In this document: positions 11,156-37,837 of the stretch, piece after piece | Layout of the letters: every line of letters starts with the position of its first letter | Position numbering within the stretch: position 1 is the first letter of the stretch | Assembly: GCA_002753465.1 (NCBI GenBank) | Contig: PEAF01000002.1 | Location: forward strand, 10,942 to 74,941 | From: Candidatus Omnitrophota bacterium | GTDB lineage: Bacteria > Omnitrophota > Gorgyraeia > Zapsychrales > Fredricksoniimonadaceae | Direction of reading: 5' to 3' | Length of the DNA: 64,000 nucleotides | Program-made: the position numbers and the translations under genes | Notes under the pieces: model-generated | Database searches by the model: none | Seen by the model: the letters and a program-made list of their open reading frames with translations, nothing else | What the model was told of the DNA's origin: nothing

Positions 11156-12520
11156 TTAGAGGCTAGCGTTAACGACTTCACCTTTTAGCTGATGGGGCGT
11201 CCCCTTGGTGATCCTGACATTAACAGTGTCCCCTATTTTCAAAATCATGTCAGGAACCGGCGTTAAAAGAACAATTTTATTGGCATCATTACGCCCGTAG
11301 ATCGACCCGCCTTTTTCTTTCTCCATAGATTCGATCAGAACAGGTTGAACCTGACCTACCAGCGCCTTGTTCTTTTCCAAGGATATCCCTGTTTGAAGTG
11401 TATTGATCCTGACAATGCGCCGTGTCTTAACATTTTCAGGTACATCATCAGTCATTTTTCGGGAAGCTTCTGTATTAGGACGGACAGAATATTTGAACAT
11501 GAACGCCGTATCAAATCTGACCGCCTCCATCACGCGCACCGTATCCTCAAACTCGGCATCAGTCTCTGTCGGAAAGCCAACGATCACATCCGTTGACAAT
11601 GCCATAGCAGGGCAAGCCTTACGGAGTTTGTCGACGAGGCCTTTAAAATCAGCCTGCGTATAGTTACGATTCATGACAGACAATACTCTGTCATTACCTG
11701 CCTGCAGGGGCAAATGCACCTGCTTGCAAACCTTAGGGTTCTGTGCCAGGACCTTGATCAGACTCTCAGGAAAATCTTTAGGGTGCGGTGAGGTAAATCG
11801 GATGCGATCAACGCCATCGACCCTGGATACTTGATCGACAAGGAACGCAAAATCATGCCCGTCATGTGCATACGAATTTACATTCTGCCCCAACAATGTC
11901 ACCTGCTTAAACCCTTCACCCGCCAGGCGTCTGACCTCATCGAGAATACTATCAACAGAACGGCTACGCTCCCGGCCACGTGTAAAAGGAACAATACAGA
12001 ACGAGCAGAAATTATTACACCCGCGCATCACGGCCACCCAGGCGTTCACGCCGGCAGTCCTGGTCGGATAAACATCAGCATAGGTTTCAAACTCTGACAA
12101 AGTAACATCATACCCGGTAGCATCGGTATCATGAAGGTTTTGCAGGATTTGAGGAAGGCGCTTGTAGCTGTCCGGGCCAACTACAAAATCAAGCGCCAGA
12201 TGTTTGTTATCTATGAGCTCTTTACGTAACCCTGTCGCCATACACCCGAGTATCCCAATCAAAACAGGCTTTCCTTGACGGCGATGGCGCATATCATGAA
12301 TATGTCCATAAACCTTGCGATGGGCATTCTCACGCACCGAACATGTATTAAGCATAATAATGTCAGCCTGAAGATCGTCATCAACAAAGAAATACCCGGC
12401 CTCGAGCAAGATAGCGCGCACAAGCTCCGTATCATACTCATTCATCTGACAACCGAAAGTAATGAGCGCGATACGCTTTCCGGTTTTGTCGCAACTATCT
12501 GGTCTTGCTTCACTTGGCAC
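11156..12520 (-). CDS. miaB: tRNA-i6A37 methylthiotransferase MiaB (radical SAM MTTase with TRAM domain)
   Basis: 454 aa; N-terminal ITFGCQMNEYD, radical SAM CNNFCSFC; apparent GTG start; 5' end overlaps 3' end of the recombinase gene. Confidence 0.8.
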   Translation of the reverse strand: MPSEARPDSCDKTGKRIALITFGCQMNEYDTELVRAILLEAGYFFVDDDLQADIIMLNTCSVRENAHRKVYGHIHDMRHRRQGKPVLIGILGCMATGLRKELIDNKHLALDFVVGPDSYKRLPQILQNLHDTDATGYDVTLSEFETYADVYPTRTAGVNAWVAVMRGCNNFCSFCIVPFTRGRERSRSVDSILDEVRRLAGEGFKQVTLLGQNVNSYAHDGHDFAFLVDQVSRVDGVDRIRFTSPHPKDFPESLIKVLAQNPKVCKQVHLPLQAGNDRVLSVMNRNYTQADFKGLVDKLRKACPAMALSTDVIVGFPTETDAEFEDTVRVMEAVRFDTAFMFKYSVRPNTEASRKMTDDVPENVKTRRIVRINTLQTGISLEKNKALVGQVQPVLIESMEKEKGGSIYGRNDANKIVLLTPVPDMILKIGDTVNVRITKGTPHQLKGEVVNASL

Positions 12521-14103
12521 TTTACAGCCACCCCTTCGAATAAACTTTTAAACGGCTGATACAAATCAAACTTCGTAATCCGTCCACCCTCAACGCTGAT
12601 GGACCTGAATAATAGCTTAATAAGTCCCTTTTTTCCAGCCATATCAAGATCTTCATTGATAGACTCAAAATGGTTCGCCACAGACTGGAGTAATTTGAGA
12701 TACTCCGTACTCCTTTCCTTCTCGATCATACTCAATTCATGCCTTCTGATCCTGGATCTGATGTCATTCTCTGCATGCCTTAATGGCATTATCTGATTCT
12801 TATACGCCTCTTTGGCCAGCAAACCCTCGGAGAAGATCCCGCTTAGCTTCTCTTGTCTTGAAATATTGGTACCAAGCTCGACCTTTAACTTGGCTACCCC
12901 ATCCCTGACATCTTCAGTGTAAGCTTTGGTCGCCTGCTTCAGCAACCCTTCCAGCCTGGTATCGCTAATGTCTTCCATAAAGATTAATCTGAGAACTTCA
13001 CAAATAAAACTTTCTGCCTCATCAGCCCTGACATAGCCATTCCCGCACTTCGCATTATGTTTAGCATTCCCGCAACAACGATAGTACCTTCTTTTTTCCA
13101 ATGTCTTTCGCTTTCCACCTAAGGCCGGATCTTTCTTGCTCCTCTTGGACGCAGCTAAACAGCCCTGAAAGCGAAGCCCACATACCCCACAGATCAACAA
13201 ACCAGACAATAAATAGTCCTGATTCCCCTGGCGTGTTAAGACGCCATTTCTGTTCAACGAAAGTCGTTTCTGAACAGTATCAAAATCATCCTTATGGATA
13301 ATTCGTTCATGCTCGCTATCGCCATAAATGAACTTCGACGGGTCATTCTTAACAAATTTAAAACCCTTCAGCGTCTTCTTCGTCTTGTCGTATCTTCTTC
13401 GATTCCATACAAGCCTCCCGAGATAAACCGGATTCTTCAAAATGTCACAGACAAGCTTAGTATGAAACATGCCCCCGCTTCTGGTCTTATAGCCCTTCTT
13501 ATACAGATATCCTGCGATCTGTCCGGTACTGCTTCCCGACTGATACATGAGGTAAATTGTTTTAACTACGGCGGCTTCCTCAGGAACCACCTCCAAGATT
13601 TTCTTTTCCTTATTATAATGGTAGCCGTACGGATAATACCGAGAGCCTTGCCAGTGTCCTCTCTGCACTCCCTTTATCATCCCGGGAAGAATTCTCTCCT
13701 TCAGCCGATTCCTTTCAAACTCGGCAAAGGTCCCTAGAAGCTGGAACATCAGCTTGCCGGATGAATTTGTTGTATCGAAAAACTCCGTAGCTGATTTGAA
13801 CCCAATGCCTGCCAGTTCGAGATCCTCGACCAAAGTAACAACATCCTTCAGTTTCCTTGAGAATCTGTCCAGCTTATAGACCAGAATGAAATCGAACTTC
13901 TTCTTTTTGGCATCCGCAAGAAGCCGTCTTAATGCAGGACGATCTAATGAATAGCCACTTATCCCGTCGTCTTCATAAACATTAAATACCTCATGACCTT
14001 CCTGCTTGGCATACTTGAGCAAGAATTCCCTCTGAACTTCCATGGAGAATCCTTCTCTTGCCTGATCCTCCGTCGAAACTCTTGTATAAATGGCAACTTT
14101 CAT
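12442..14103 (-). CDS. large serine recombinase (resolvase domain + recombinase domain + zinc ribbon)
   Basis: 553 aa; N-terminal VAIYTRVSTEDQ catalytic Ser motif, central recombinase domain, Cys-rich zinc-ribbon (CGVCG...CC...C). Confidence 0.85.
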   Translation of the reverse strand: MKVAIYTRVSTEDQAREGFSMEVQREFLLKYAKQEGHEVFNVYEDDGISGYSLDRPALRRLLADAKKKKFDFILVYKLDRFSRKLKDVVTLVEDLELAGIGFKSATEFFDTTNSSGKLMFQLLGTFAEFERNRLKERILPGMIKGVQRGHWQGSRYYPYGYHYNKEKKILEVVPEEAAVVKTIYLMYQSGSSTGQIAGYLYKKGYKTRSGGMFHTKLVCDILKNPVYLGRLVWNRRRYDKTKKTLKGFKFVKNDPSKFIYGDSEHERIIHKDDFDTVQKRLSLNRNGVLTRQGNQDYLLSGLLICGVCGLRFQGCLAASKRSKKDPALGGKRKTLEKRRYYRCCGNAKHNAKCGNGYVRADEAESFICEVLRLIFMEDISDTRLEGLLKQATKAYTEDVRDGVAKLKVELGTNISRQEKLSGIFSEGLLAKEAYKNQIMPLRHAENDIRSRIRRHELSMIEKERSTEYLKLLQSVANHFESINEDLDMAGKKGLIKLLFRSISVEGGRITKFDLYQPFKSLFEGVAVKCQVKQDQIVATKPESVSRSLLSVVR

Positions 14104-14438
14104 AAGCTTACGTGTCCTTTCTCTTGCTTGACATCTTGAATATCCGAATCGGTTTCCTTGCGTTTTTCTAACAGCCGATCAACACGGGCAAGGTCTGCCT
14201 GTAAGATAATCTCCAATACTGCGGATAACCTCACATATTCCTCCCCGTCCTCGTTAATAATACGTTCTTGCCGTTTTCTTGACCTTCTTGCCAAACGCCA
14301 CACACCAACCTTATCCGAGCCATACATATCCTTTGACTCTGACCACTGCTCAAACAGCTTGATCAAATCTGCATCAGGATACTTGTTCGCGTAACCGCTG
14401 AATGCCTCGGCCTGCACCACATAATCTTTTTCGTCCAT
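14100..14438 (-). CDS. hypothetical protein (112 aa), translationally coupled to recombinase
   Basis: ORF overlaps recombinase start by 4 nt; no recognizable motif. Confidence 0.4.
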   Translation of the reverse strand: MDEKDYVVQAEAFSGYANKYPDADLIKLFEQWSESKDMYGSDKVGVWRLARRSRKRQERIINEDGEEYVRLSAVLEIILQADLARVDRLLEKRKETDSDIQDVKQEKGHVSL

Positions 14439-14514
14439 TTGTTGTTATTAAACTCCACCTTGATCCTTTCGTTTCATTACTGCCGTTACTATGCGCCTTA
14501 TGCGCAAAATTTCA

Positions 14515-15327
14515 TTACACGCATTCCTCAAATGCAAAGCCACCTTCCTTAGATCCGTCCGACCACCAAGCACACTCACGACCCGCTCCATCGGGAAGCT
14601 TAAAGGCGTCAGGATGTTCTCTGCAAATCTCCTTGATCGACCGCAACCTTTTATCCCGTGTCCCCGCCGAGGCCGGCAAGGCTGAGGCCGTGACTTCTAC
14701 GTGTCTTCCTTGTTCGGGTATGCCACTATGCTGCTCGATTCGGATACCCTCCGTGTCTGGCACTCTCTGATCTACTATGTCAGCCGGAGCGCAAGCGAAG
14801 GCAGTGGTAACCAAAGGAGCAACTGCTTCTAAGCGAGCGTCAGCGAGCAATGTGTGATTAAGATCGGATATTTGAAGGTTTTCATTCTTTTGTATACTAT
14901 CTATTGTGTTATGTATTGTGTGTGGCGGTCCTGCCACCGGTAATTGCCCTGCAGGCGCCACTAGTTGAGACCTGAACGCCACTAGCTTATCCGCTTCTTC
15001 AGATGTCATTACTGGTGGCGATCCTGCCACTACCCATTGAGAATATTTCCTGTTCAAGGCATATGAATTGATGTGCCCGTGCCTCATTAAAACAATTCCT
15101 TTCCTCACAAGCGATTTTAGAGCGCCAACTTGCCGCTTCCTTTCCAACCCGGTCATTGACTGAAATTGCGAAATGCTTATCCGATCATGGCTCTTCTGAT
15201 ACCCGTATGTCTTTCTGACCAACGCCATCACGGTTCGCCATTCATTCGGGGTCAACCTCGCTTTCGCCAAATTCTCAAGTGTGGTGCTCGATATCCTCGT
15301 GAAATATTTCTTTTCCTTCTCTTCCAT
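14515..15327 (-). CDS. phage replisome-organizer/replication initiator O-like protein (N-terminal wHTH)
   Basis: N-terminal region (FTRISSTTLENLAKARLTPNEWRTVMALVRKTYGYQK...ISISQFQSMTGLERKRQVGALKSLVRKGIV) resembles Phage_rep_org_N domain; C-terminal half low complexity. Confidence 0.45.
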   Translation of the reverse strand: MEEKEKKYFTRISSTTLENLAKARLTPNEWRTVMALVRKTYGYQKSHDRISISQFQSMTGLERKRQVGALKSLVRKGIVLMRHGHINSYALNRKYSQWVVAGSPPVMTSEEADKLVAFRSQLVAPAGQLPVAGPPHTIHNTIDSIQKNENLQISDLNHTLLADARLEAVAPLVTTAFACAPADIVDQRVPDTEGIRIEQHSGIPEQGRHVEVTASALPASAGTRDKRLRSIKEICREHPDAFKLPDGAGRECAWWSDGSKEGGFAFEECV

Positions 15328-15361
15328 TTTTCTCCATCCTTATCTTGTACCGATTTCCTGT

Positions 15362-15547
15362 TCAGACATCGCCCCGACCCTTGCTCTTCACCCACGAAGC
15401 AACGACGTCGGGATCGAAGCGAACCAGTTTCCCCAGTTTGCTATGGGGGATCTTACCCGTCTCGGCCCACCAGTAAATTGTGGTCCGGCTCACTCCAAGA
15501 CATGCTGCTACCTCGTCGACGTTTAAAAACTTCTTCTCCATACTCAT
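15362..15547 (-). CDS. excisionase/AlpA-like HTH_17 DNA-binding protein
   Basis: Start MSMEKKF with AGGAGG SD; LNVDEVAACLGVSRTTIYWWAETGKIPHSKLGKLVRFDPDVVASWV matches excisionase-family HTH. Confidence 0.6.
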   Translation of the reverse strand: MSMEKKFLNVDEVAACLGVSRTTIYWWAETGKIPHSKLGKLVRFDPDVVASWVKSKGRGDV

Positions 15548-16100
15548 TGTGCTTCCTCCTTCTGGGGACAAAACAGTCCCGCCACGAAGCATAATTGCTC
15601 CGCGTATTAAGTCTTATTTCTTGTTGGGATTTACTAACGATGAATCCGTGGTGTGGGGCAATATGAAGCAGACGTTTCTTTACCCTACAATTGCATTATA
15701 CTACTAAACAGGCACATTCCTCAACCACGACTTTGAAATATTTTTTACAGCGACGGAGTATTAACGTTCTACCCTCTTGGGAAATGACCTTTATTTGAGC
15801 ATTTATCCCGATCAATCTGCCTTAATCGAGCGTTTTCTCTGAACCCTGAGCAAAACAAAGGGTTAAAGGAAATGCTACCCAAGCGACCAGTGAGTGCTGG
15901 CGGCTTTAAGCATTTCCCCGGAGCCCTTTTACGATAACGATATGGACGATCGCATGCTCTTCCAGTCCTAAAATAACTCCTGTTATTTTCCATTTGATCC
16001 CTCCGATGTTAATCACTCCCTGATAAATGGATCTATTCGCATCTCAGGAGGGCTTAGCGGCCTTGAGAATGCCGCTAAATCCCATGGACACCTTCTACCC

Positions 16101-16856
16101 CTACCATTTCCTGCACAGTTCGCGATAACCGCACCAAGAACAAGTCTGCTTATTCTCACAGGGATACAGGGTCCCCGATTGGATCGCCTTGCTTACAAAT
16201 CCCAGGACCTTCAGGAATCGGCGAATATCATCCTGCGTCCGTGTGGTCGGGATCTGCTGGAGCTTCGGGACCTTGGTCTTGACCATTACGTCAAACCGCA
16301 GTTCCTTTTCCGGCACTCCGAATAGCGTCCGATATGCCAACGCATAGCATGTCAGCTGAATGTCCGATCCAACATCTTCCGGGTTCATGCTTCGTTTTGA
16401 GGTTTTATGATCGATGATCGTACCCTCCACATCCACGAGATCAATGATCCCCTTGAGCGTGTAACTGACGTTCGCAAAAATCAAATTAAACTCATGCTCA
16501 ACGAGCCTCGGCTGAATGGTTGGAGATATCTGGCCATGATAGGCTGTGACCATCTTGACTCCATCATCCTTAACAGTTCCAGCCTTCTCATCCATGTCGA
16601 AGACCGTCTCTTTAACTTCCTGCTCCCATCGATCTGAGAACAGATCCAATACCTTCTCCGCAGGAAGATCCTGCTTACTTGTGATCTTCTGCGAGTAGTT
16701 GGCCTCCAACGCCGAGTGGATTGACTTGCCAAGGGTCAGCGATCCCGTTGGCGGTATCTTCAACCCGTCGATATACCGGAATTGATATTGCAAGGGGCAC
16801 CTGAGGAACATCTTAATCTGTGAGACCGATAAGTGTTTGCTTTCCATGGGACACAC
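16101..16856 (-). CDS. PD-(D/E)XK nuclease, Cas4/RecB-like exonuclease with Fe-S Cys cluster
   Basis: 251 aa; N-terminal Cys (CPLQYQF), catalytic block IDLVDVEG...IIDHKTSK, C-terminal CxxxxCSWCxxxxxC. Confidence 0.6.
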   Translation of the reverse strand: MCPMESKHLSVSQIKMFLRCPLQYQFRYIDGLKIPPTGSLTLGKSIHSALEANYSQKITSKQDLPAEKVLDLFSDRWEQEVKETVFDMDEKAGTVKDDGVKMVTAYHGQISPTIQPRLVEHEFNLIFANVSYTLKGIIDLVDVEGTIIDHKTSKRSMNPEDVGSDIQLTCYALAYRTLFGVPEKELRFDVMVKTKVPKLQQIPTTRTQDDIRRFLKVLGFVSKAIQSGTLYPCENKQTCSWCGYRELCRKW

Positions 16857-16924
16857 TCCTTTAGTTAAAAGAAAGACGGCAGGCCCCCGGTTGCCCGAAG
16901 ACCTGCCGTCCGATTGCTTATGGT

Positions 16925-17344
16925 TTACGCTGTAACAGCCAACATCTCCTCGATCACCTTACTCGCCGAGGCCATGCTCATCTCATTAACTCCTTCGATG
17001 AACTGTCTACGTTCCTTGGCAAGCTTGATGATGAGAGACTTCTGCTTTGGCGAGATCGGAGCCTCTGGATCCTTTGGATGAGGCTTACCATTTCCATTAC
17101 CATTGATAGGCTTCCCATTGCCATTAGCGTGCTTCTTAGGCTCAGGAATGACCACATCCTCCCTATGCGGCTCACCCTGATTACCCGTCGGATTGACCTG
17201 CCTACTAATGGCCCTTTTTGCCATAGAGAACAGCTCGTCCACGACGCCATCAGCTTGCTCCTTTGCAACATCACCGGAAGTTTCAAAACTGACTTGGTAA
17301 CTGTCACCGTTGCTTCTGTAACTGTAATTAGCAAGAATACGCAT
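16925..17344 (-). CDS. hypothetical protein with NG-rich linker (139 aa)
   Basis: Protein-like composition; NGNGKPINGNGNGKP repeat linker; alternate-frame 144-aa ORF is Arg/Ser-rich and rejected. Confidence 0.4.
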   Translation of the reverse strand: MRILANYSYRSNGDSYQVSFETSGDVAKEQADGVVDELFSMAKRAISRQVNPTGNQGEPHREDVVIPEPKKHANGNGKPINGNGNGKPHPKDPEAPISPKQKSLIIKLAKERRQFIEGVNEMSMASASKVIEEMLAVTA

Positions 17345-17389
17345 TTGATCCTCCTTGTTGTTAGAAACTGTTGAGTTTGATTTAGAACA

Positions 17390-17752
17390 TTACGCATGCG
17401 ATTTACATTCACAGCACTCTCCTTTCTGCCACCCCTGGGCTTTTCGAATCAGGTCGACCTCAATGGCCTTCCTGGGTGTAAAAAAGAGATCCCGATCAAT
17501 CTCCAGAAACAGCATCTTGATCTGGTCCAGTTCCTCCAGGCTGAAATAGCCCCATTCGGCCATATCCAGATTGCCGTTTAAGACCACAAAGCCAAAGAAA
17601 GTCTGGCTTGCGGGATCATATTCAGCAGCGTACCAGTCACACCCGCCAATGAAGAAATGAAGATGGATGATCTTCTCCTTCAATGGCACGCTCTCCGTCG
17701 TGTAGAAGGCTGGCAATTGAGCCAGCTCCTGCTTTGTTGGCTTATTCCACAT
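17390..17752 (-). CDS. DUF2958-family protein
   Basis: HFFIGGCDWYAAEYD...FFGFVVLNGNLDMAEWGYFSLEEL...RDLFFTP matches DUF2958 signature; likely start MWNKPTKQEL. Confidence 0.55.
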   Translation of the reverse strand: MWNKPTKQELAQLPAFYTTESVPLKEKIIHLHFFIGGCDWYAAEYDPASQTFFGFVVLNGNLDMAEWGYFSLEELDQIKMLFLEIDRDLFFTPRKAIEVDLIRKAQGWQKGECCECKSHA

Positions 17753-17942
17753 GGTCTGTTCCTTTCTGTTCGCAGACATAAAAAAAGACACCCTCTTGGG
17801 TGCCTGTCTCATGCCTCTGGTTTAGCTGTGACTTCTTAGTAGATGTCCTTACTCCACCGCCAGTAACTCAGGAAACTGGACATCCCTCGTCCACTCCTGA
17901 AGCTATGACGGTATGCAAAGTAGATCCTCTTAACAATGTGGT

Positions 17943-18209
17943 TCATGCGGCCTCCTTCTGGTAATGATTAACAACCACCGTAGAGAAATCCTCATACGTG
18001 GACGCGTTCTTACACACGACCTGATCGTACCACTGGTTATCTTTACCCTGCTCCTGCGGCATGGAGACGAAGATCCCCTTCTTACCAGCGAGCAGACGCA
18101 CTCCCTTGATAACAAGAACGTCATTAATCGAGACATCTGCGAACGCCTTCAATGATCCGGCGTCCGGTAGACGGTACATCTTCTCGACAGTGAATTTAAC
18201 TTGGCTCAT
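17943..18209 (-). CDS. SpoVG-family protein
   Basis: MSQVKFTVEKMYRL...SLKAFADVSINDVLVIKGVRLLAGKKGIFVSMPQ colinear with SpoVG; AGGAGG SD before MSQV start (alternative upstream start at 18269 also has an SD). Confidence 0.55.
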   Translation of the reverse strand: MSQVKFTVEKMYRLPDAGSLKAFADVSINDVLVIKGVRLLAGKKGIFVSMPQEQGKDNQWYDQVVCKNASTYEDFSTVVVNHYQKEAA

Positions 18210-18292
18210 GACTTCCTCCTTGTTGTTGGTTGCTGAAACAGTTTGAACGGTTTCCTTTGCTTTCCTCATACTCGCCTCCTTGTGATTGGTTA

Positions 18293-18457
18293 TTAGAATT
18301 TCCCGAGATAACAACTTCCACAATCGGTGTTATTGCCTTCGCGCTGACAGACTGAACACACCGGCACCCTGCCTGCGCCTCTCAGGCCTTCACCGAGAAA
18401 CTCCTCCAGGAGTTCGGTCATCGGCCTTTGGTATGCCTGCTCGACTAGGCTCTCCAT
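18293..18457 (-). CDS. hypothetical small CxxC...CxxC protein (54 aa)
   Basis: MESLVEQ... start preceded by AGGAGG SD; two CxxC pairs; C-terminal part of a longer, likely spurious 148-aa ORF. Confidence 0.35.
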   Translation of the reverse strand: MESLVEQAYQRPMTELLEEFLGEGLRGAGRVPVCSVCQREGNNTDCGSCYLGKF

Positions 18458-18801
18458 ATCTTTCCTCCTTTCTGATACTGGACCATTATTCTTGGGAACA
18501 CAGGTACGCGGCCAAACAGCCGATACCAATCCAACACAACGCCCTTGATGCCTTCTTTTTGGATGTGCCACAAGGCGTACAGTCCAAACACAACAGAAGC
18601 AGCAAGGTTGCATATCCCCACAAAGCTGGCCACACCAGTGAACACAGTTATTAAACCCGAACCAGCGAAGTCCATAACAAACGCCAGCATTGGGTTCGCA
18701 AACATGATGTGCCGAAACTTGAGTGGGAATATTCCCCACAGGCTAATGTGGATCACGCTCATGATGATCGTGACGATAATAAATCCAACAGCGTCGAACA
18801 T
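18445..18801 (-). CDS. small integral membrane protein (3-4 TM)
   Basis: Start MFDAVGF with GGAGGTG SD; hydrophobic helices throughout. Confidence 0.5.
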   Translation of the reverse strand: MFDAVGFIIVTIIMSVIHISLWGIFPLKFRHIMFANPMLAFVMDFAGSGLITVFTGVASFVGICNLAASVVFGLYALWHIQKEGIKGVVLDWYRLFGRVPVFPRIMVQYQKGGKIWRA

Positions 18802-18844
18802 ACAGATCACCTCCTTTCCATGTTTGATTTTGTTAACGAGTAGA

Positions 18845-18888
18845 CACAAAAAATCCCTTGTCAGTGTCAGAGTGACACCAACAAGGGA
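18845..18888 (-). terminator. rho-independent terminator (minus strand) ending the AT-rich cargo block
   Basis: Stem TCCCTTGT/ACAAGGGA with inner palindrome GTGTCA..TGACAC, followed on minus strand by TTTTTTTGTG. Confidence 0.5.
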
Positions 18889-19013
18889 TGTAATTGAGAC
18901 CCCCCTGGGGCACGAAACGAAGATTATTTCAGACTATATAATGACTAGGAACCTGCAGGAATTTTTTAGAGAAATTTTCGGGGAATAAGAAATTTATAGC
19001 AGCGACGCGCGCA

Positions 19014-19526
19014 CTAGTTAATTAAATTTTCCAGAACTCTTTGAGGGATAAAGCCATCATGCAAGGCCGCTTCAATATAAACAGATTGCTTGGTCGGCAT
19101 TCTGTCTGACTTTGAAGCGACTTCCTTTTTCTGCATCAATTCTGCGAACTTAACGACAGGGAGAGCTGCCACTTTTTTCATCCCATTACCATTGTCGCGC
19201 ATCTTACTTAATAAATCTTGCCTTAAAATCGGCTCAACATCACCCACATCAATATATGATCTCTCCGCCCTTAAATGCGCTTCGTGCAAATCTTCCCATT
19301 GATGCCTTTCGACAACAATGGTCAACGCGGGATTGCACGCATGTGGCTTTGAAGTTAAAGGAAAAAACGGATAAAAGATTAGGGTTGGATGAAAATCTAA
19401 AATCTTTCCTACTAATTTATATTTGCGTTTAACGATTGGGTTATGAGGATCTTTAGACTTGGCGTCTAAATGAATATTTCTAGTTTGGATTCTAGAAATT
19501 AAGTCTTCATCGGAAAGATTACGCAC
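19014..19526 (-). CDS. hypothetical protein (170 aa), candidate toxin partner of Panacea-domain protein
   Basis: Overlaps upstream Panacea-domain gene by 8 nt; no recognizable motif. Confidence 0.45.
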   Translation of the reverse strand: MRNLSDEDLISRIQTRNIHLDAKSKDPHNPIVKRKYKLVGKILDFHPTLIFYPFFPLTSKPHACNPALTIVVERHQWEDLHEAHLRAERSYIDVGDVEPILRQDLLSKMRDNGNGMKKVAALPVVKFAELMQKKEVASKSDRMPTKQSVYIEAALHDGFIPQRVLENLIN

Positions 19527-19989
19527 ATCCTAAATCCAGTTTTTCATTCAAGTGCTCACGTCCGCCTAAGGTTGCGCCGATTCTCACCATTGGGGCTGTT
19601 TGATACGCGATATCAGTGAGCGCTTTGGCGCCGTAGCCTCTTAACTTCTCTAACACTTCATCGATTAACGAATATTCCTCTTCAGAAATCAGTTCAGAAA
19701 CACCCTGCTGATCACCATCAGATTGATAAATTACATATTCATCCCCGGAATAAGCATACTCCGTCTTCGACTTAACGACCCCTTCACTCTGCAAAGCAGT
19801 TAACAAAGTATAAATTTTGTCATCATAAGGTCCATAATAATATCGCACATAGGAAAACTCGGATATGGGCTTCCCTGTCTTTTTAACACTCACCACATCA
19901 ATTAAATAACACAACTTCAGCAAGCTGGTGAGCGAGGCCGTTATGTGCCTTTTGATTATATAGGCTAATAGACTTTTCGTCTTTTCCAT
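19519..19989 (-). CDS. Panacea-domain (DUF4065, SocA/PanA-like) antitoxin-like protein
   Basis: MEKTKSLLAYIIKRHITASLTSLLKLCYLIDVVSVKKTGKPISEFSYVRYYYGPY matches DUF4065/Panacea N-terminal signature. Confidence 0.55.
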   Translation of the reverse strand: MEKTKSLLAYIIKRHITASLTSLLKLCYLIDVVSVKKTGKPISEFSYVRYYYGPYDDKIYTLLTALQSEGVVKSKTEYAYSGDEYVIYQSDGDQQGVSELISEEEYSLIDEVLEKLRGYGAKALTDIAYQTAPMVRIGATLGGREHLNEKLDLGCA

Positions 19990-20117
19990 TTGATTTAATG
20001 ATACCTTATTCAACTTTTTAGTAAAGAAGTTACAAATAAATAAACAAAAACACATTATCTCTTGTGGGTCGCCCCGGGAGACAAGCCGTGAGCTGTCTTA
20101 GATTAAATGTGGCAACC

Positions 20118-20765
20118 TCAAACATCCCAACGAAAACTTTTATAAACTCGCATAAGATCATCAAAAGCGAAATCCCCATACTTAATTGGTGAAATTAAAT
20201 CGAGAAGTAATACATGTTTACCTGAAAGGGCGCTTTCACAGGGTATCATGATAGTTGCGTGGAATCTTTCGTCTCCATCTGAAAATCTCCCTTTTACTGT
20301 AAGCAATGCGCCTTTAATGCCCGCATCATTATTTTGAGCAACATCGGCCTTGCCTCCTCCATCAATATTTTCAATCAAATGCTCGGTTTTCTTAGTAAAT
20401 ATTGCCTCATAGTACTGCTCAAATGTTTCATTTGCTTTTACACTTACAATTTGGACTCGTAAATTACTATGTAACTCTTGGCACATAAACCTATAATCAA
20501 AGAAATTATCAGGATTATGTTCGGGATCAATCATCGAATTCAATAACCCTCTTGAAATAAACCAAATATATTTACAATCTTTGAAAGACATTTGATATTT
20601 AAAATATCGGCCTTTAATATCGCCAACTTTCTTGAAAAGAAGACTAAATGCTATAGGATGTGGCGGCTTATTCTTCCCGCCCATCGTTGACAAATCAGTC
20701 CCACAGTGCTTGCAAACTGTCGCGGCATCCTGAATCTCTTCAATACAAAAAGGACATTTTCTCAT
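20118..20765 (-). CDS. hypothetical protein with N-terminal zinc ribbon (CPFC...CKHC)
   Basis: 215 aa; CxxC-x13-CxxC at N-terminus, remainder unrecognized. Confidence 0.45.
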   Translation of the reverse strand: MRKCPFCIEEIQDAATVCKHCGTDLSTMGGKNKPPHPIAFSLLFKKVGDIKGRYFKYQMSFKDCKYIWFISRGLLNSMIDPEHNPDNFFDYRFMCQELHSNLRVQIVSVKANETFEQYYEAIFTKKTEHLIENIDGGGKADVAQNNDAGIKGALLTVKGRFSDGDERFHATIMIPCESALSGKHVLLLDLISPIKYGDFAFDDLMRVYKSFRWDV

Positions 20766-20807
20766 CTAATTTCATCCCTTTCTACTTACCAATGTTCTTG
20801 TTCAAGA

Positions 20808-21419
20808 TCACAACCCAAATTCACTCTTTAGCACAGCATTCTTCTCTTGATTTAAGCGCTGCTTATCTAACTCCACCTCATTATGAATAATATTAAACGC
20901 AGAAATAATATCTTCTACCCACTCCCCGTGGATAAAACAATCAGGTTCAGCGTTTATCTCCCAGTATGAGGAGCCGGACTTTCTAATGACTCCGTCCAAA
21001 GCGAACTCATAAACTTTCTTATTCTCAACCAATAATCTAAAAGCGCCATATTTTTTTACGCCTAAGAATGAAGACTTACGAAATAGAAAATCGAAAGCCC
21101 TGTTATTTATCATCATTCTTCGACAATCATTAAAGCCTTTCACATCAGGATTGCTTTGATACTTCATCCAAAACCCAAAGTCATAGCTAAAACTGTTTAA
21201 ATCTTTCGGCTTGTTCTTTTCATAATATTGCGACCGTGCATGGCATATTTTCTTGCCAACAACCACAAGGTCGGTGTGTGTCTGACCAAAATCAGACCCC
21301 CAATCGTAAAGCCTAAACATAATTTCACTCAACTTCAAACTTTTAGCCTTCTCTTTCAAAAGACGTATTTTTTCTTTGAGCTCCACTTCAGATACCAATT
21401 CCTGTCCATCGCTAGTCAT
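20808..21419 (-). CDS. hypothetical protein (203 aa), third gene of 3-gene operon
   Basis: 3-nt gap to upstream gene; coiled-coil-like N-terminus; no known motif. Confidence 0.45.
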   Translation of the reverse strand: MTSDGQELVSEVELKEKIRLLKEKAKSLKLSEIMFRLYDWGSDFGQTHTDLVVVGKKICHARSQYYEKNKPKDLNSFSYDFGFWMKYQSNPDVKGFNDCRRMMINNRAFDFLFRKSSFLGVKKYGAFRLLVENKKVYEFALDGVIRKSGSSYWEINAEPDCFIHGEWVEDIISAFNIIHNEVELDKQRLNQEKNAVLKSEFGL

Positions 21420-21421
21420 AA

Positions 21422-22222
21422 CTATTTTCCCTTCCTGACACCAATACGATATTTAATCGGCATCTTCGGGTCGCGTTCTACCTCAGGAATGCCAACTATC
21501 ATCGCGGGGTATGTCAACTTTAAATCAACCAACGTCACAAAAACTTCCTCTGAAAATTCAAACAAATTCGACCACAACACATTTAAAAAATCTTCAATCT
21601 TTTGGTTGTTAACAGTTGGAATCAAGACTTGGCCCTTGCCAGAAGAATCAATCTTGTAATTTATCATCGGCAAATTAAACCCATTATGCTCAATCTCAGT
21701 ACGAATTTCCCTGAATAACGCATACCATTGACGATCATCCCTAAGCATCTTTACAAACTCTTTGAGCCGCGAATCTTCCCCTCGGCCCAAAATTGACTGT
21801 AACCCCTTCTCAAAGGCAGGATCTTTCTGGAAAAAGAACCCAATGGGATAACCCATAAATGCAGAAAGCTTATCAAGACATTGAAGCGATATTCGTCCTT
21901 TTATAAAAAAATCCTTAAAATTACGATTCAGCTCTTGGGCAATGCTCTCTCTTACCGTCCAAGCATTATTTTGCCCTTCAATTATTTCTCCTGAACTAAT
22001 CTTTCTTGAATGATCATCAATAAGACGAGCACATTCTTTAAATGCCTGTCTACACTCCGCTAAATTATTAAATAAAGGCTCGTATAATCCATCGAACTCT
22101 TTGATCTGAACCTCGCCGCACATCACAAAATTCCTTAACTCCAAATTTTGACACATCATTCTAGCAAAAAAAGGATCAGCAGTTCCCTCGTCAGAAATCT
22201 TTTGTATTAGGAACGGCTTCAT
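21422..22222 (-). CDS. hypothetical protein (266 aa), second gene of 3-gene operon
   Basis: Overlaps lipoprotein gene by 4 nt; no known motif. Confidence 0.45.
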   Translation of the reverse strand: MKPFLIQKISDEGTADPFFARMMCQNLELRNFVMCGEVQIKEFDGLYEPLFNNLAECRQAFKECARLIDDHSRKISSGEIIEGQNNAWTVRESIAQELNRNFKDFFIKGRISLQCLDKLSAFMGYPIGFFFQKDPAFEKGLQSILGRGEDSRLKEFVKMLRDDRQWYALFREIRTEIEHNGFNLPMINYKIDSSGKGQVLIPTVNNQKIEDFLNVLWSNLFEFSEEVFVTLVDLKLTYPAMIVGIPEVERDPKMPIKYRIGVRKGK

Positions 22223-22710
22223 TTATACTTAATCGCCTTTGCCTTTATGTTTATAACTTTTTGTGATGTTGTCTCAGAAACAGGCATTGTCCCTACAGTG
22301 TTCCCATACGCGTCTTTTACTGATTCTTGTGTTATATCCGTATCTGTCCTGCTTCCTAATGATGTTTGAATATCCATTAAACCATCAGCCCCAATATTTC
22401 TTGCTTTCGTTTCCAATAATGGCCTCAGGTTGCTATCACGAATAACATACCCCATAACCTCACCTATCACTTCATACGGCTTCTGAGGTTTGTCTCCAAA
22501 AAACAAATCAATCGGATAGTCCTTTGTCTGAGGGGGATAGACACTCTTGTTGTAATTAACAAATGACAGCTGCCTATTAGCTGCAGAACCACCAAGCAGA
22601 TTGCCAAGAAGACCGCCGGATTCAGTAGCGCACCCAGTAGTCAAGACAACCAAAGCCAACAAACAAAAGATTTTTCTCATAATAACAGTCCTCTCCTTTT
22701 CGACGACCAT
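22219..22710 (-). CDS. hypothetical lipoprotein, first gene of 3-gene operon
   Basis: Signal peptide with lipobox MRKIFCLLALVVLTTGC (true start probably ~22680). Confidence 0.5.
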   Translation of the reverse strand: MVVEKERTVIMRKIFCLLALVVLTTGCATESGGLLGNLLGGSAANRQLSFVNYNKSVYPPQTKDYPIDLFFGDKPQKPYEVIGEVMGYVIRDSNLRPLLETKARNIGADGLMDIQTSLGSRTDTDITQESVKDAYGNTVGTMPVSETTSQKVINIKAKAIKYK

Positions 22711-22855
22711 AACTCTATACTTCTAAGCCTTCTTCTCCACAAATACTCTAATATCTGAATCAACAAATTTTGTGGATATTGTATCATCTGCGACGATATT
22801 CACAAACCGGAATTTTCCGCACACCCAGACATTCAGGCATTATGTCGGGTCACAG

Positions 22856-22893
22856 AAACAAAAAAGCCTGATCCCATATCTGGAACCAGGCGC
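22856..22893 (-). terminator. putative rho-independent terminator (minus strand) after the 236-aa gene
   Basis: GCCTG...CAGGC stem followed on minus strand by TTTTTTGTTT. Confidence 0.35.
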
Positions 22894-22930
22894 TGAGTAT
22901 TTCCTCTAAAAACCAAACATGCTGCTTTCT

Positions 22931-23641
22931 CTATGCCCCTTCCTTCGTGTTTTTCGACTTGATTGATTCTTTCATAAACTCAGCAAAAAGATTTCCCATT
23001 ATTTCAGAGACGGACAGGCCATTAATCTTTTCCTTGCTAACAAGATGCTTTGCTTGTGCCATAATCTTCTCAACTGGAGATCCAATGGCAAGAAGATCAT
23101 CATATGTCCTATGGGCGGCATTTCTTGCGATAAGATAACCGCAAAGATAGGCCGCTCCAATAACAGAAGACACATGAACAACTTGTTCATCAGTAAGTGC
23201 CTCCGGCATCATCGATGATTCGGCCTGAATAAATCTATTTACTTCATTAAAAAAGATCGGTTCTGCTTCGGCCAGAAACTTTAATATTTCTCGACCCTTC
23301 TCTGCGTCGGCAAGCGTCCCGTGAACATCCTGTATAATCTCCCGCGTTACGCTGTGCTCACCATGGCTTTTATTTAAATGCTTCAGTGGCGTCTCTTCTT
23401 CTGCCTCATCTTGTAAAGCAACGCCCTCCTCATCAGGCATCGGCCCATCACTTATTTTCTCCACATGTACATCAGCAATAGCTTGAATATCGCCGTCGTC
23501 TTTTAAATCTTCTAAAACATTATGAGCTAACAATTCAATCGCATGTTCCTCACAAGTTGCTTCAAGATCATATTCAATATGTGCCGAGACCGTCCATGTC
23601 TTCCGATCCTGTTCCATAAAACCCCCTGCGTTATTCCTCAT
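22931..23641 (-). CDS. hypothetical acidic protein (236 aa)
   Basis: Long ORF, highly acidic N-terminal half; no motif recognized. Confidence 0.4.
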   Translation of the reverse strand: MRNNAGGFMEQDRKTWTVSAHIEYDLEATCEEHAIELLAHNVLEDLKDDGDIQAIADVHVEKISDGPMPDEEGVALQDEAEEETPLKHLNKSHGEHSVTREIIQDVHGTLADAEKGREILKFLAEAEPIFFNEVNRFIQAESSMMPEALTDEQVVHVSSVIGAAYLCGYLIARNAAHRTYDDLLAIGSPVEKIMAQAKHLVSKEKINGLSVSEIMGNLFAEFMKESIKSKNTKEGA

Positions 23642-23651
23642 TTATTCGCGT

Positions 23652-23728
23652 TAACAGGTTCAAAATGTTCATGCGCCAACGTGACCAATCGTCAACCAAA
23701 GGTCTGGAGATACACTTTATTATTCATT
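23652..23728. repeat. direct repeat copy A (~77 nt, ~80% identical to copy B) downstream of FkbM gene
   Basis: Alignable with 24792-24865: TAACAG(G/A)TTCAAAAT...CGCCAACG...CAATCGTCA...TTCATT. Confidence 0.6.
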
Positions 23729-23749
23729 TTGTTATTATCAAGATCATGT

Positions 23750-24493
23750 TTATTGCTTGGGAGAAAAATACCAGTTTAATGGATCATACGGTAAATATTT
23801 ATCAATCCGCTCGTACCCGTACTTTTGAAAATAATCCAGAATCTTTTTGCTTGTCCGGCGGGCATGTTCAATACAAACAAGTTCAGGTCTGAATTTCTTA
23901 ATATTAAAGCCTGCCAAGGCCTCGGGCTCCCCGCCTTCAATATCCATCGAAAGGAAATCTATCTTTGATACTCCATTCTGATCTAGTAAAGCATCAAGGG
24001 TAATGGCCGGAGCTTCTTGCTGTTTTATATTAGGACTCTGGATATGGTGGTATTTCACAGAAGCTTTCAAGAACCTTACATTTGCTGAAGAAAGTGCTTT
24101 TGCATTTAAAAGTGCGAAAAACGGTTCATTATTAGCCGAATGGTCAGTGACAATGAATCTGAAAAACCTGGTTTTCGGCCGATATTTTAAATACGCATCC
24201 GCATACTCAGCCAGGGCGTCAACCGCTATGCCTGCCCAGCCAAGATGTTGCTCAAGATAATACGTCGTGCTCATGTCTTTATAATCCGCGCACCCTACAT
24301 CAAGAAAAACACCGTTGGAACGGTCATTGAAGAAATCTCGGATTATAAGCTCTTCATTATATTGCGAGTAGAGCTTAACCCCATTATCGAGAATCTCACC
24401 TGCAATGGCATTGTCTTTATGCGCCCAAGGAACGATCTCGTTTACTAAAAATAAATTTAATATAGTAATGAAAATCACAATTATCTTATTCAT
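23750..24493 (-). CDS. FkbM-family methyltransferase
   Basis: 247 aa; VFLDVGCADY SAM-binding motif and FkbM hallmark IDFLSMDIEGGEPEAL; N-terminal hydrophobic segment. Confidence 0.65.
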   Translation of the reverse strand: MNKIIVIFITILNLFLVNEIVPWAHKDNAIAGEILDNGVKLYSQYNEELIIRDFFNDRSNGVFLDVGCADYKDMSTTYYLEQHLGWAGIAVDALAEYADAYLKYRPKTRFFRFIVTDHSANNEPFFALLNAKALSSANVRFLKASVKYHHIQSPNIKQQEAPAITLDALLDQNGVSKIDFLSMDIEGGEPEALAGFNIKKFRPELVCIEHARRTSKKILDYFQKYGYERIDKYLPYDPLNWYFSPKQ

Positions 24494-24791
24494 TAATGCA
24501 ACTTTTCTTCCCTGTCATCATAATATTAAATTTATCCAACACCCAAATTGGGGACAGTTGAAGTACTTTAAACTCCCAATCCTTGATCTTACCCCAATAT
24601 TGACGCGGAGTCGGGCTGTCAGTTAAAGCCTCTACCACATCAACAACACTGAAAAACCATTCATTCTCATGAAAGACTCGCCTGATCTTCTATACTCAAA
24701 CACAACAAGCGATTTATTTTTATCCATAAACCTTCTCCAAGGTTTTAATCAAGATCGTGAAACTTTCTACTCTTTTTCGCTTATCTTCTGT

Positions 24792-37637: not shown

Positions 37638-37743
37638 TTGCCCTTCACTCGCTACGCTCGTTCGGGTCAGACATCCGCATCGCCTAAAGGATGCTGCGCA
37701 TCCAGCGATGCTCCTTCGAATCCTTAAGATATAATTAAAAAAA

Positions 37744-37832
37744 CGGAGAAGGAGGGATTCGAACCCTCGGACCCAGTCACCCAGGTCAACTTCTTAGCAG
37801 GAAGCTCCAATCGGCCACTCTGGCACCTCTCC
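37744..37832 (-). tRNA. tRNA-Ser (anticodon GCU)
   Basis: Cloverleaf with GGAGAGG acceptor, anticodon loop CUGCUAA, long variable arm, GGTTCGAAT T-arm; 89 nt. Confidence 0.85.
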
Positions 37833-37837
37833 AAAAT

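Follow-up and report, generated by a model that had tools for sequence, protein, structure and literature searches.

The question raised by positions 19014–19989 of the stretch analyzed here is what a gene for a small Panacea-domain protein does in overlap with a gene whose product has no recognizable domain. The stretch comprises 64,000 nucleotides (nt) from Candidatus Omnitrophota bacterium (contig PEAF01000002.1 of assembly GCA_002753465.1, positions 10,942 to 74,941 of the forward strand); we refer to it as the window and use its numbering throughout. An earlier note on this DNA had described the two genes as a toxin–antitoxin (TA)-like couple and had suggested that the partner of the Panacea protein could represent a novel toxin fold. 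In our analyses, the locus is best explained as a type II TA module of the PanAT kind, in which the toxin would be a translation-arresting endoribonuclease with a MazF fold, and we regard this overall explanation as probable. What is new is the sequence family of the toxin, whereas the fold and the system type are already known (Kurata et al., 2022, PNAS, PMC8832971).

Both genes are located on the minus strand, which the earlier note had left unstated. The first gene, panA (19519–19989), encodes a stand-alone Panacea-domain protein of 156 amino acids (aa), the putative antitoxin, and the second gene, panT (19014–19526), encodes the putative toxin of 170 aa, which starts with a GTG codon and is predicted to consist of a MazF/PemK-like barrel (residues ~1–123) and C-terminal helices. 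The longest open reading frame (ORF) listed for panA, 19519–20055, begins with an ATG at 20055 and has 178 aa; an alignment with 19 homologs placed the start at the ATG at 19989, giving the 156-aa product. The GTG start of panT lines up with the N-termini of its homologs, and the 156-aa and 170-aa sequences are both recorded in exactly this form as called proteins in the protein collection. The 8-nt overlap of the earlier note was found at exactly 19519–19526 (GTGCGTAA on the minus strand). As the GTG of panT thus lies within the last codons of panA, the gene arrangement suggests that both genes are translationally coupled. There is no clear Shine–Dalgarno sequence for panT, only an AGGA 1 nt before the GTG, and one may speculate that this fits a coupling by termination and reinitiation. 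The panT product (19.6 kDa) is basic, with an isoelectric point (pI) of 9.16 and a family median of 9.0, and the panA product is acidic, with a pI of 5.25 and a family median of 5.8. This charge complementarity of a basic toxin and an acidic antitoxin, as calculated from the sequences, would count in favor of a TA pair.

The borders of the transcript can be delimited with different degrees of certainty. A very strong hairpin that resembles an intrinsic terminator (18853–18889, minus strand; 17-bp stem with 7 G-C pairs and a 3-nt loop, followed by TTTTTGTGTC, a T-run) is positioned 125 nt downstream of the panT stop codon and likely marks the end of the panAT transcript. It separates panT from the next gene, a 134-aa ORF at 18445–18849 that matches no family and whose hydrophobic sequence suggests a membrane protein. 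Upstream of panA, the sole promoter-like site is a weak sigma-70-like candidate (19998–20025, minus strand; TTTACT, a 16-nt spacer, and TATCAT) that ends 9 nt before the panA ATG. Four such sites were found in the region and 4.4 are expected from shuffled sequence, i.e. there is no excess. If this candidate were used, the panA transcript would, speculatively, be leaderless or nearly so.

The assignment of a Panacea (DUF4065) domain to the 156-aa product was confirmed by the Pfam model PF13274 (SocA_Panacea), which matches residues 23–130 with an E-value of 7.8e-17 and 62.7 bits (cutoff 25.7) and is the only Pfam match of PanA. The protein also matches phrog_1281, and in PADLOC it weakly matches DarG and PDC-M19A, a candidate defence family. 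Conservation extends beyond the Pfam domain: the C-terminal tail 131–156 contains invariant and near-invariant residues, and region 118–151 (GYGAKxLTxIAYxTxPMxxxGATLGGxEHLxxxLDL) is more conserved than any other part of PanA. Judged from this conservation, region 118–151 is a candidate for the element that contacts the toxin. A comparison of the PanA profile with PDB sequences gave only noise, and a single-sequence structure model of PanA was unusable, with a predicted local distance difference test (pLDDT) score of 37.5.

The partner protein, as the earlier note had stated, has no recognizable domain at the sequence level. Searches of NCBIfam, PHROGs, and PADLOC gave no PanT match at E≤0.1, the Pfam scan returned a single sub-threshold chance line (Fijivirus_P9-2, 14.5 bits versus a cutoff of 27), and the family profile produced only noise with PDB sequences. 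PanT nevertheless belongs to a sizeable family. When 1.84 billion cluster representatives were searched exhaustively by HMMER with a two-sequence profile, 194 representatives of clusters at 50% identity passed E≤1e-3, of which 144 also passed E≤1e-10. Almost every homolog is 160–180 aa long, with one matched stretch. A word-indexed search recovered PanT itself and no more than one to three relatives, and the use of a 132-sequence profile did not change this. The closest relative that it identified, P0002, has 172 aa and is 43% identical. The profile search gave four proteins, none of them informatively named, and the family has almost no RefSeq representation. When Pfam was run on the 132 family members, no consistent family emerged; six different families were hit by one member each.

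To establish whether PanA and PanT belong together, we turned the motif D-x2-S-x-[DE]-x2-T-x3-K-x-K-[YF]-K into a degenerate DNA pattern and searched the genomes of 185,579 species with it. This yielded 89 matches, 26 of which were true family members as judged by the hidden Markov model (HMM), while the other 63 arose by chance, for the most part within large proteins unrelated to the family. Each of the 26 family members is directly preceded, on its own strand, by a gene for a close PanA homolog, the gaps ranging from −41 to +11 nt. On the 1.8-kb ENA contig of P0002, the next gene upstream codes for a 159-aa SocA_Panacea protein and overlaps the P0002 gene by 8 nt, as in the window, and an overlap of this length is also present at three of the loci (L039, L049, and L061). 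The partner consistently co-occurs with a Panacea gene, and given the family of 194 representatives and the two-gene arrangement in 26 of 26 loci, the pairing is far beyond chance. Very probably, the two genes form a functional PanA-linked module.

The 26 loci span at least 8 phyla. Patescibacteria account for 15 of them (Saccharibacteria, Parcubacteria, Doudnabacteria, Nomurabacteria, Peribacteria, and others), and the count for Patescibacteria, or candidate phyla radiation (CPR), becomes 16 when the degraded Minisyncoccus copy described below is included (L002, L011, L016, L017, L019, L023, L027, L037, L050, L052, L063, L066, L071, L072, L077, and L089). The other hosts include Planctomycetota, Thermodesulfobacteriota, Ignavibacteriota, Omnitrophota, Alpha- and Gammaproteobacteria, and one metagenome-assembled Eubacteriales genome. 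No third gene is conserved around the 26 loci; similar flanking ORFs are shared by four near-identical Saccharibacteria loci and by no others.

The sequences of the two proteins co-vary. The pairwise identities of PanA and PanT correlate with a Mantel r of 0.92, a value that none of 2000 permutations reached, and r was still 0.79 after removal of close pairs. This is compatible with a PanA–PanT complex, yet it is also expected from co-inheritance alone. Two loci have decayed. In L071 (2740–3794), a frameshift near HMM position 64 splits panT, and the panA beside it is intact; in the complete genome of Minisyncoccus archaeiphilus (L016, 6785–7308), only fragments of both genes are left. None of the recovered loci has an intact panT that lacks panA. 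The pattern of a frameshifted panT beside an intact panA would, as far as such sequence remnants can be interpreted, count in favor of the TA reading.

We used AlphaFold2 with the 132-sequence alignment to obtain a structural model of PanT. The model reached a pLDDT of 95.3 and a predicted template modelling (TM) score of 0.90, with all five models at 94.3 or above. It begins with a short N-terminal helix, followed by long beta-hairpins (17–26, 29–39, and 49–58), further strands (69–73, 89–93, 98–101, and 117–121) with a helix at 102–110, and three C-terminal helices (124–138, 145–155, and 162–169). When this model was compared with the PDB by Foldseek, nearly all of the top 50 matches were endoribonuclease toxins of the MazF, EndoA, PemK, MoxT, or YdcE type, some of them in RNA-bound form. 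The MazF-type matches had E-values from 2.4e-4, a probability of 1.00, and target TM scores of 0.65–0.76, with root-mean-square deviations (rmsd) of 3.2–4 Å over ~130 columns at 6–16% sequence identity. In the BFVD, 10 of the top 14 matches were named PemK-like, PemK/MazF, or endoribonuclease. As these matches came from two independent structure libraries, the novel toxin fold proposed in the earlier note did not hold: the predicted PanT fold is a MazF/Kid SH3-like barrel with a C-terminal helical extension and not a new fold. Short pieces of the hhalign alignments were in the topologically expected register, with family position S90 opposite MazF S73 and family positions 117–134 opposite MazF 90–107.

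The conserved residues of PanT can be placed on this model. In the 132-sequence family alignment (A2), K35 is invariant, and D21, S24, E26, K37, F54, K108, N114, and F116 are conserved to at least 90%; T58, which is 81% conserved, and S90 are also among the conserved polar residues. The family motifs are KxKYKLAG (33–40) and FFVLTS (54–59). K33, K35, and K37 alternate along one beta-strand of the model and thereby form a basic stripe, while T58/S59 close the strand that is equivalent to beta-3 of MazF. The catalytic pair of Bacillus subtilis MazF consists of R25 and T48, and the spacing between K35 and T58 in PanT is 23, the same as that between R25 and T48. We infer from this that K35 and T58 may map onto R25 and T48 of MazF. 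Taken together, the conserved polar residues (K35, D21, S24, E26, K37, K108, N114, T58, and S90) would fit an enzymatic or RNA-binding site.

Based on the basic nature of PanT, its lysine stripe, the position of T58/S59, and the K35–T58 spacing, we propose that PanT is an endoribonuclease that is neutralized by PanA. According to this proposal, panA-panT would be a bicistronic, translationally coupled type II TA module of the PanAT kind, PanT would arrest translation by sequence-specific RNA cleavage, and PanA would block the toxin by direct binding, with contacts made by the globular Panacea domain, by the conserved C-terminal tail, or by both. The pair would be inherited and horizontally exchanged as a self-contained two-gene unit. 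Toxicity, direct binding, and biological role are here extrapolated from related systems, and RNase chemistry itself we consider to be slightly on the probable side.

Several observations weigh against this proposal. The fold was assigned from a predicted structure, and the Foldseek E-values are modest (~1e-4). The Pfam model PF02452 (PemK_toxin) matched none of the 132 family members at E≤0.01, nor did it match the PanT of the window at E≤0.1. Profile comparisons by hhalign gave probabilities of only 0.4% with B. subtilis MazF, the sequence of which had been checked as identical to 4me7_A, and 0.3% with a 4-sequence MazF profile; these templates were shallow, and a search to deepen the MazF profile returned only sequences that were ~92% or more identical to EndoA. 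A canonical catalytic arginine is not evident in PanT, in which a lysine is conserved instead, and the PanT of the window departs from its family at the near-invariant positions E26 (D) and F116 (M) and at the common T29 (N). The MazF/CcdB fold also includes toxins that are not RNases, among them CcdB, which poisons gyrase. PanA is better conserved than PanT, with median pairwise identities of 44% versus 27%, and type II pairs usually show the reverse; the higher conservation of PanA fits the published idea of a constrained, possibly sensory Panacea core. Finally, not all PanTs behave as expected in Escherichia coli: eight were non-toxic, including the MazF-like one of Flavobacterium xanthum, and the MazF-like PanT of Chryseobacterium bovis was toxic and not rescued (PMC8832971).

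The lack of sequence similarity to PemK and the presence of non-RNase members in the fold superfamily could mean that the locus is indeed a PanAT pair, with a MazF/CcdB-fold toxin that is no mRNA endoribonuclease and that instead targets gyrase or a specific tRNA or rRNA, or acts by stoichiometric binding, with specificity provided by the helical extension. In line with this, the constellation D21/S24/E26/K35/K37/K108/D111/N114 does not resemble the Arg/Thr pair of MazF, and the extra helical region of ~45 residues is absent from MazF. On the other hand, the best structural matches are MazF RNases, some of them bound to RNA, with CcdB absent from the top 50, and the strongly basic PanT with its lysine stripe suits RNA binding. 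Moreover, the validated MazF-fold PanTs inhibit translation, as was found with the TA pairs of Pseudomonas moraviensis (T6) and Bifidobacterium ruminantium (T25) (PMC8832971). We therefore regard a target other than mRNA as unlikely. A related reading, to which we assign equally little weight, is that PanT belongs to a CPR-enriched MazF/Kid branch in which the conserved D21, S24, E26, K35, K37, K108, and N114, together with the helical extension, would confer another substrate or chemistry (tRNA, rRNA, or a non-nucleolytic mode), with the unusually conserved Panacea protein acting as a trigger-sensing switch and not as a mere plug.

The conservation pattern of the two proteins and the eight non-toxic PanTs would also be in agreement with a conserved operon that is no TA system at all, in which PanT would bind RNA or DNA without being toxic and would work with the Panacea protein. 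We consider this improbable, as the hallmarks of type II systems are all present, namely the gene overlap, the small protein sizes, the charge complementarity, the patchy occurrence across phyla without a fixed neighborhood, the toxin fold, and a decay that affects the toxin first.

The length of PanT (170 aa versus 171 aa for ToxN) brings to mind a further candidate, an endoribonuclease of the type III ToxN/AbiQ/CptN kind whose RNA antitoxin has been replaced by a protein. The ToxIN, AbiQ, and CptIN systems share the broad MazF/Kid-like fold superfamily with PanT, and the LTS motif at positions 57–59 (consensus FFVLTSxK) resembles the LTSPK motif of ToxN (T52, S53, and K55), with K61 of the PanT motif not being conserved. 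CptN (4rmo) was among the Foldseek matches (E 3.8e-3). This match was poor, with an rmsd of 8.5 Å and TM scores of 0.41–0.45, and thus weaker than those with MazF; ToxN and AbiQ were absent from the top 50. There is also no profile similarity, as hhalign gave a probability of 0.09% with ToxN, whose sequence had been verified from 2xd0, and no RNA repeat antitoxin is apparent at the locus, as no tandem repeats were found in 18000–21000 (minimum score 30) and no direct repeats in 18840–20130. On the grounds of the hhalign result, the absence of a nearby repeat RNA locus, and the poor CptN match, we rejected a ToxN-like identity, which appears very improbable.

This brings us back to a PanAT module with a MazF-fold toxin and to the question of how it relates to the known representatives. 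The coupling suspected in the earlier note has the architecture by which PanAT systems were defined (Kurata et al., 2022): a Panacea domain above threshold, adjacent genes on the same strand that are at most 100 nt apart (here with an 8-nt overlap), a pairing that recurs, here in 26 of 26 loci and on one ENA contig, and no conserved operon of more than three genes. That survey found 88 toxin clusters, of which T25 carries PemK by CDD, while T5 and T6 have no CDD hit and are similar to EndoA/PemK/MazF by HHpred, with a probability of 99.5% to PemK in the case of T5 (PMC8832971). With T5, T6, and T25, our pair shares the antitoxin without an extra N-terminal domain, the antitoxin-first order, and small overlaps (−1, −4, −8), along with a toxin that has no CDD or Pfam match and is yet predicted to adopt the EndoA/PemK/MazF fold, and a patchy distribution across phyla as a two-gene unit. 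In contrast to T5, the PanT family of the window has no link to PemK by profile comparison, and in contrast to MazF, PanT is ~50 residues longer due to its C-terminal helical extension. Most members of the family come from Patescibacteria/CPR and further uncultured lineages, which the survey, limited to RefSeq, did not sample. Our Saccharibacteria loci are not the Saccharibacteria pairs of that dataset, as the latter belong to a different cluster, T14, with HigB-2/RelE-like toxins and a PanA that has a helix-turn-helix (HTH) domain (PMC8832971). At the HMMER level, the PanT family appears to be distinct from the published clusters, although it may still correspond to one of the numbered ones.

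The finding of a MazF/PemK-like fold also aligns with the TA network analysis, in which this fold is among the commonest and in which stand-alone Panacea proteins neutralize toxins directly (Ernits et al., 2023, PMC10440598). With MazEF, PemIK, and Kid-Kis, the pair has in common the SH3-like barrel, here predicted, the basic toxin and acidic antitoxin, and an overlapping operon that starts with the antitoxin, as well as a conserved Thr/Ser that closes the strand corresponding to beta-3 of MazF. It differs from MazEF and PemIK in that the antitoxin is a Panacea protein and not an AbrB- or ribbon-helix-helix (RHH)-type MazE/PemI with a DNA-binding domain. It further differs from MazF by the lack of a PF02452 match, by the lysine in place of the catalytic arginine, and by the extra C-terminal helices. 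Two other systems share the antitoxin domain. SocA of the type VI system SocAB has a Panacea domain, and the DarG models of PADLOC and NCBIfam match PanA weakly over their C-terminal region. PanA is neither of these proteins: the SocA model NF047745 yields 13.6 bits where 190 are required, and the partner matches no SocB model; the DarG model NF048014 yields 19.6 bits where 250 are required, and Panacea is the sole Pfam domain in the 156 aa of PanA, which thus has no macrodomain. PanT matches no DarT or other PADLOC model.

The genomic surroundings bear on the biological role of the pair. The panAT locus is probably located inside an integrated mobile element that extends approximately from 12442 to 24500. 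This region contains the gene of a large serine recombinase (12442–14103), which abuts a MiaB-like gene of the radical S-adenosylmethionine (SAM) type, and further genes for Phage_rep_O (14515–15327), an excisionase-like HTH_17 protein (15362–15592), a PD-(D/E)XK nuclease (16101–16856), a DUF2958 protein (17390–17812), and a SpoVG homolog (17943–18323). At ~19–25 kb, the GC content is 0.38–0.41, versus 0.45–0.47 elsewhere, and panAT is positioned at the start of this low-GC stretch. On the other side of panAT follow five consecutive minus-strand ORFs (20118–23641; 215, 203, 266, 163, and 236 aa) that match no Pfam, PADLOC, or NCBIfam family; the sole signal comes from the first of them (20118–20765), which has a zinc ribbon at its N-terminus. 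These five ORFs may be accessory or defence genes of an unknown kind.

As part of the low-GC cargo of a serine-recombinase element, the pair would either stabilize this element or serve in phage defence. A main role in abortive infection, with Panacea as the sensor that releases the toxin and without an addiction or stabilization function, would be compatible with the mechanism favored above. Besides the cargo position next to five unannotated genes, it would agree with the weak PADLOC matches of PanA mentioned above and with the published proposal of a sensor role for Panacea and the links of TA networks to defence systems (PMC10440598). Neither PanT nor the neighboring proteins match a PADLOC system, and there is no recurrent neighborhood of defence genes among the 26 loci. 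In addition, no family member was found in phage or plasmid records, in that tblastn of PanT against phage and plasmid collections gave nothing and the degenerate pattern produced only 13 chance matches in IMG/VR. We therefore consider phage defence as the main role to be possible but rather doubtful.

Other features of the window were noted in passing. ARAGORN called a tRNA-Ser(GCT) at 37743–37833 that the Rfam tRNA model did not report at the gathering score, whereas the other three tRNAs of the window were detected by both programs. At 90% identity, NadA, SufB, and an 860-aa protein have no cluster mates in a collection of 15 billion proteins, and SufS has only two. Such near-singleton housekeeping proteins indicate a poorly sampled host lineage.

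The panA-panT locus thus reveals neither a new toxin fold nor a new system type. Its significance lies in a fold and a likely function for a so far unannotated family of 194 clusters without a Pfam, NCBIfam, or PHROG model, and in the strict association of this family with one Panacea antitoxin subfamily. It extends the PanAT catalogue to Patescibacteria/CPR and to uncultured lineages that were missed by RefSeq-based surveys. If the reading of a distinct chemistry with Panacea as a sensing switch were true, the pair would offer a compact model of the sensing of activation cues by Panacea. As a small stand-alone Panacea protein with a partner of predicted MazF fold, the pair may in any case be suited for structural work on toxin neutralization.

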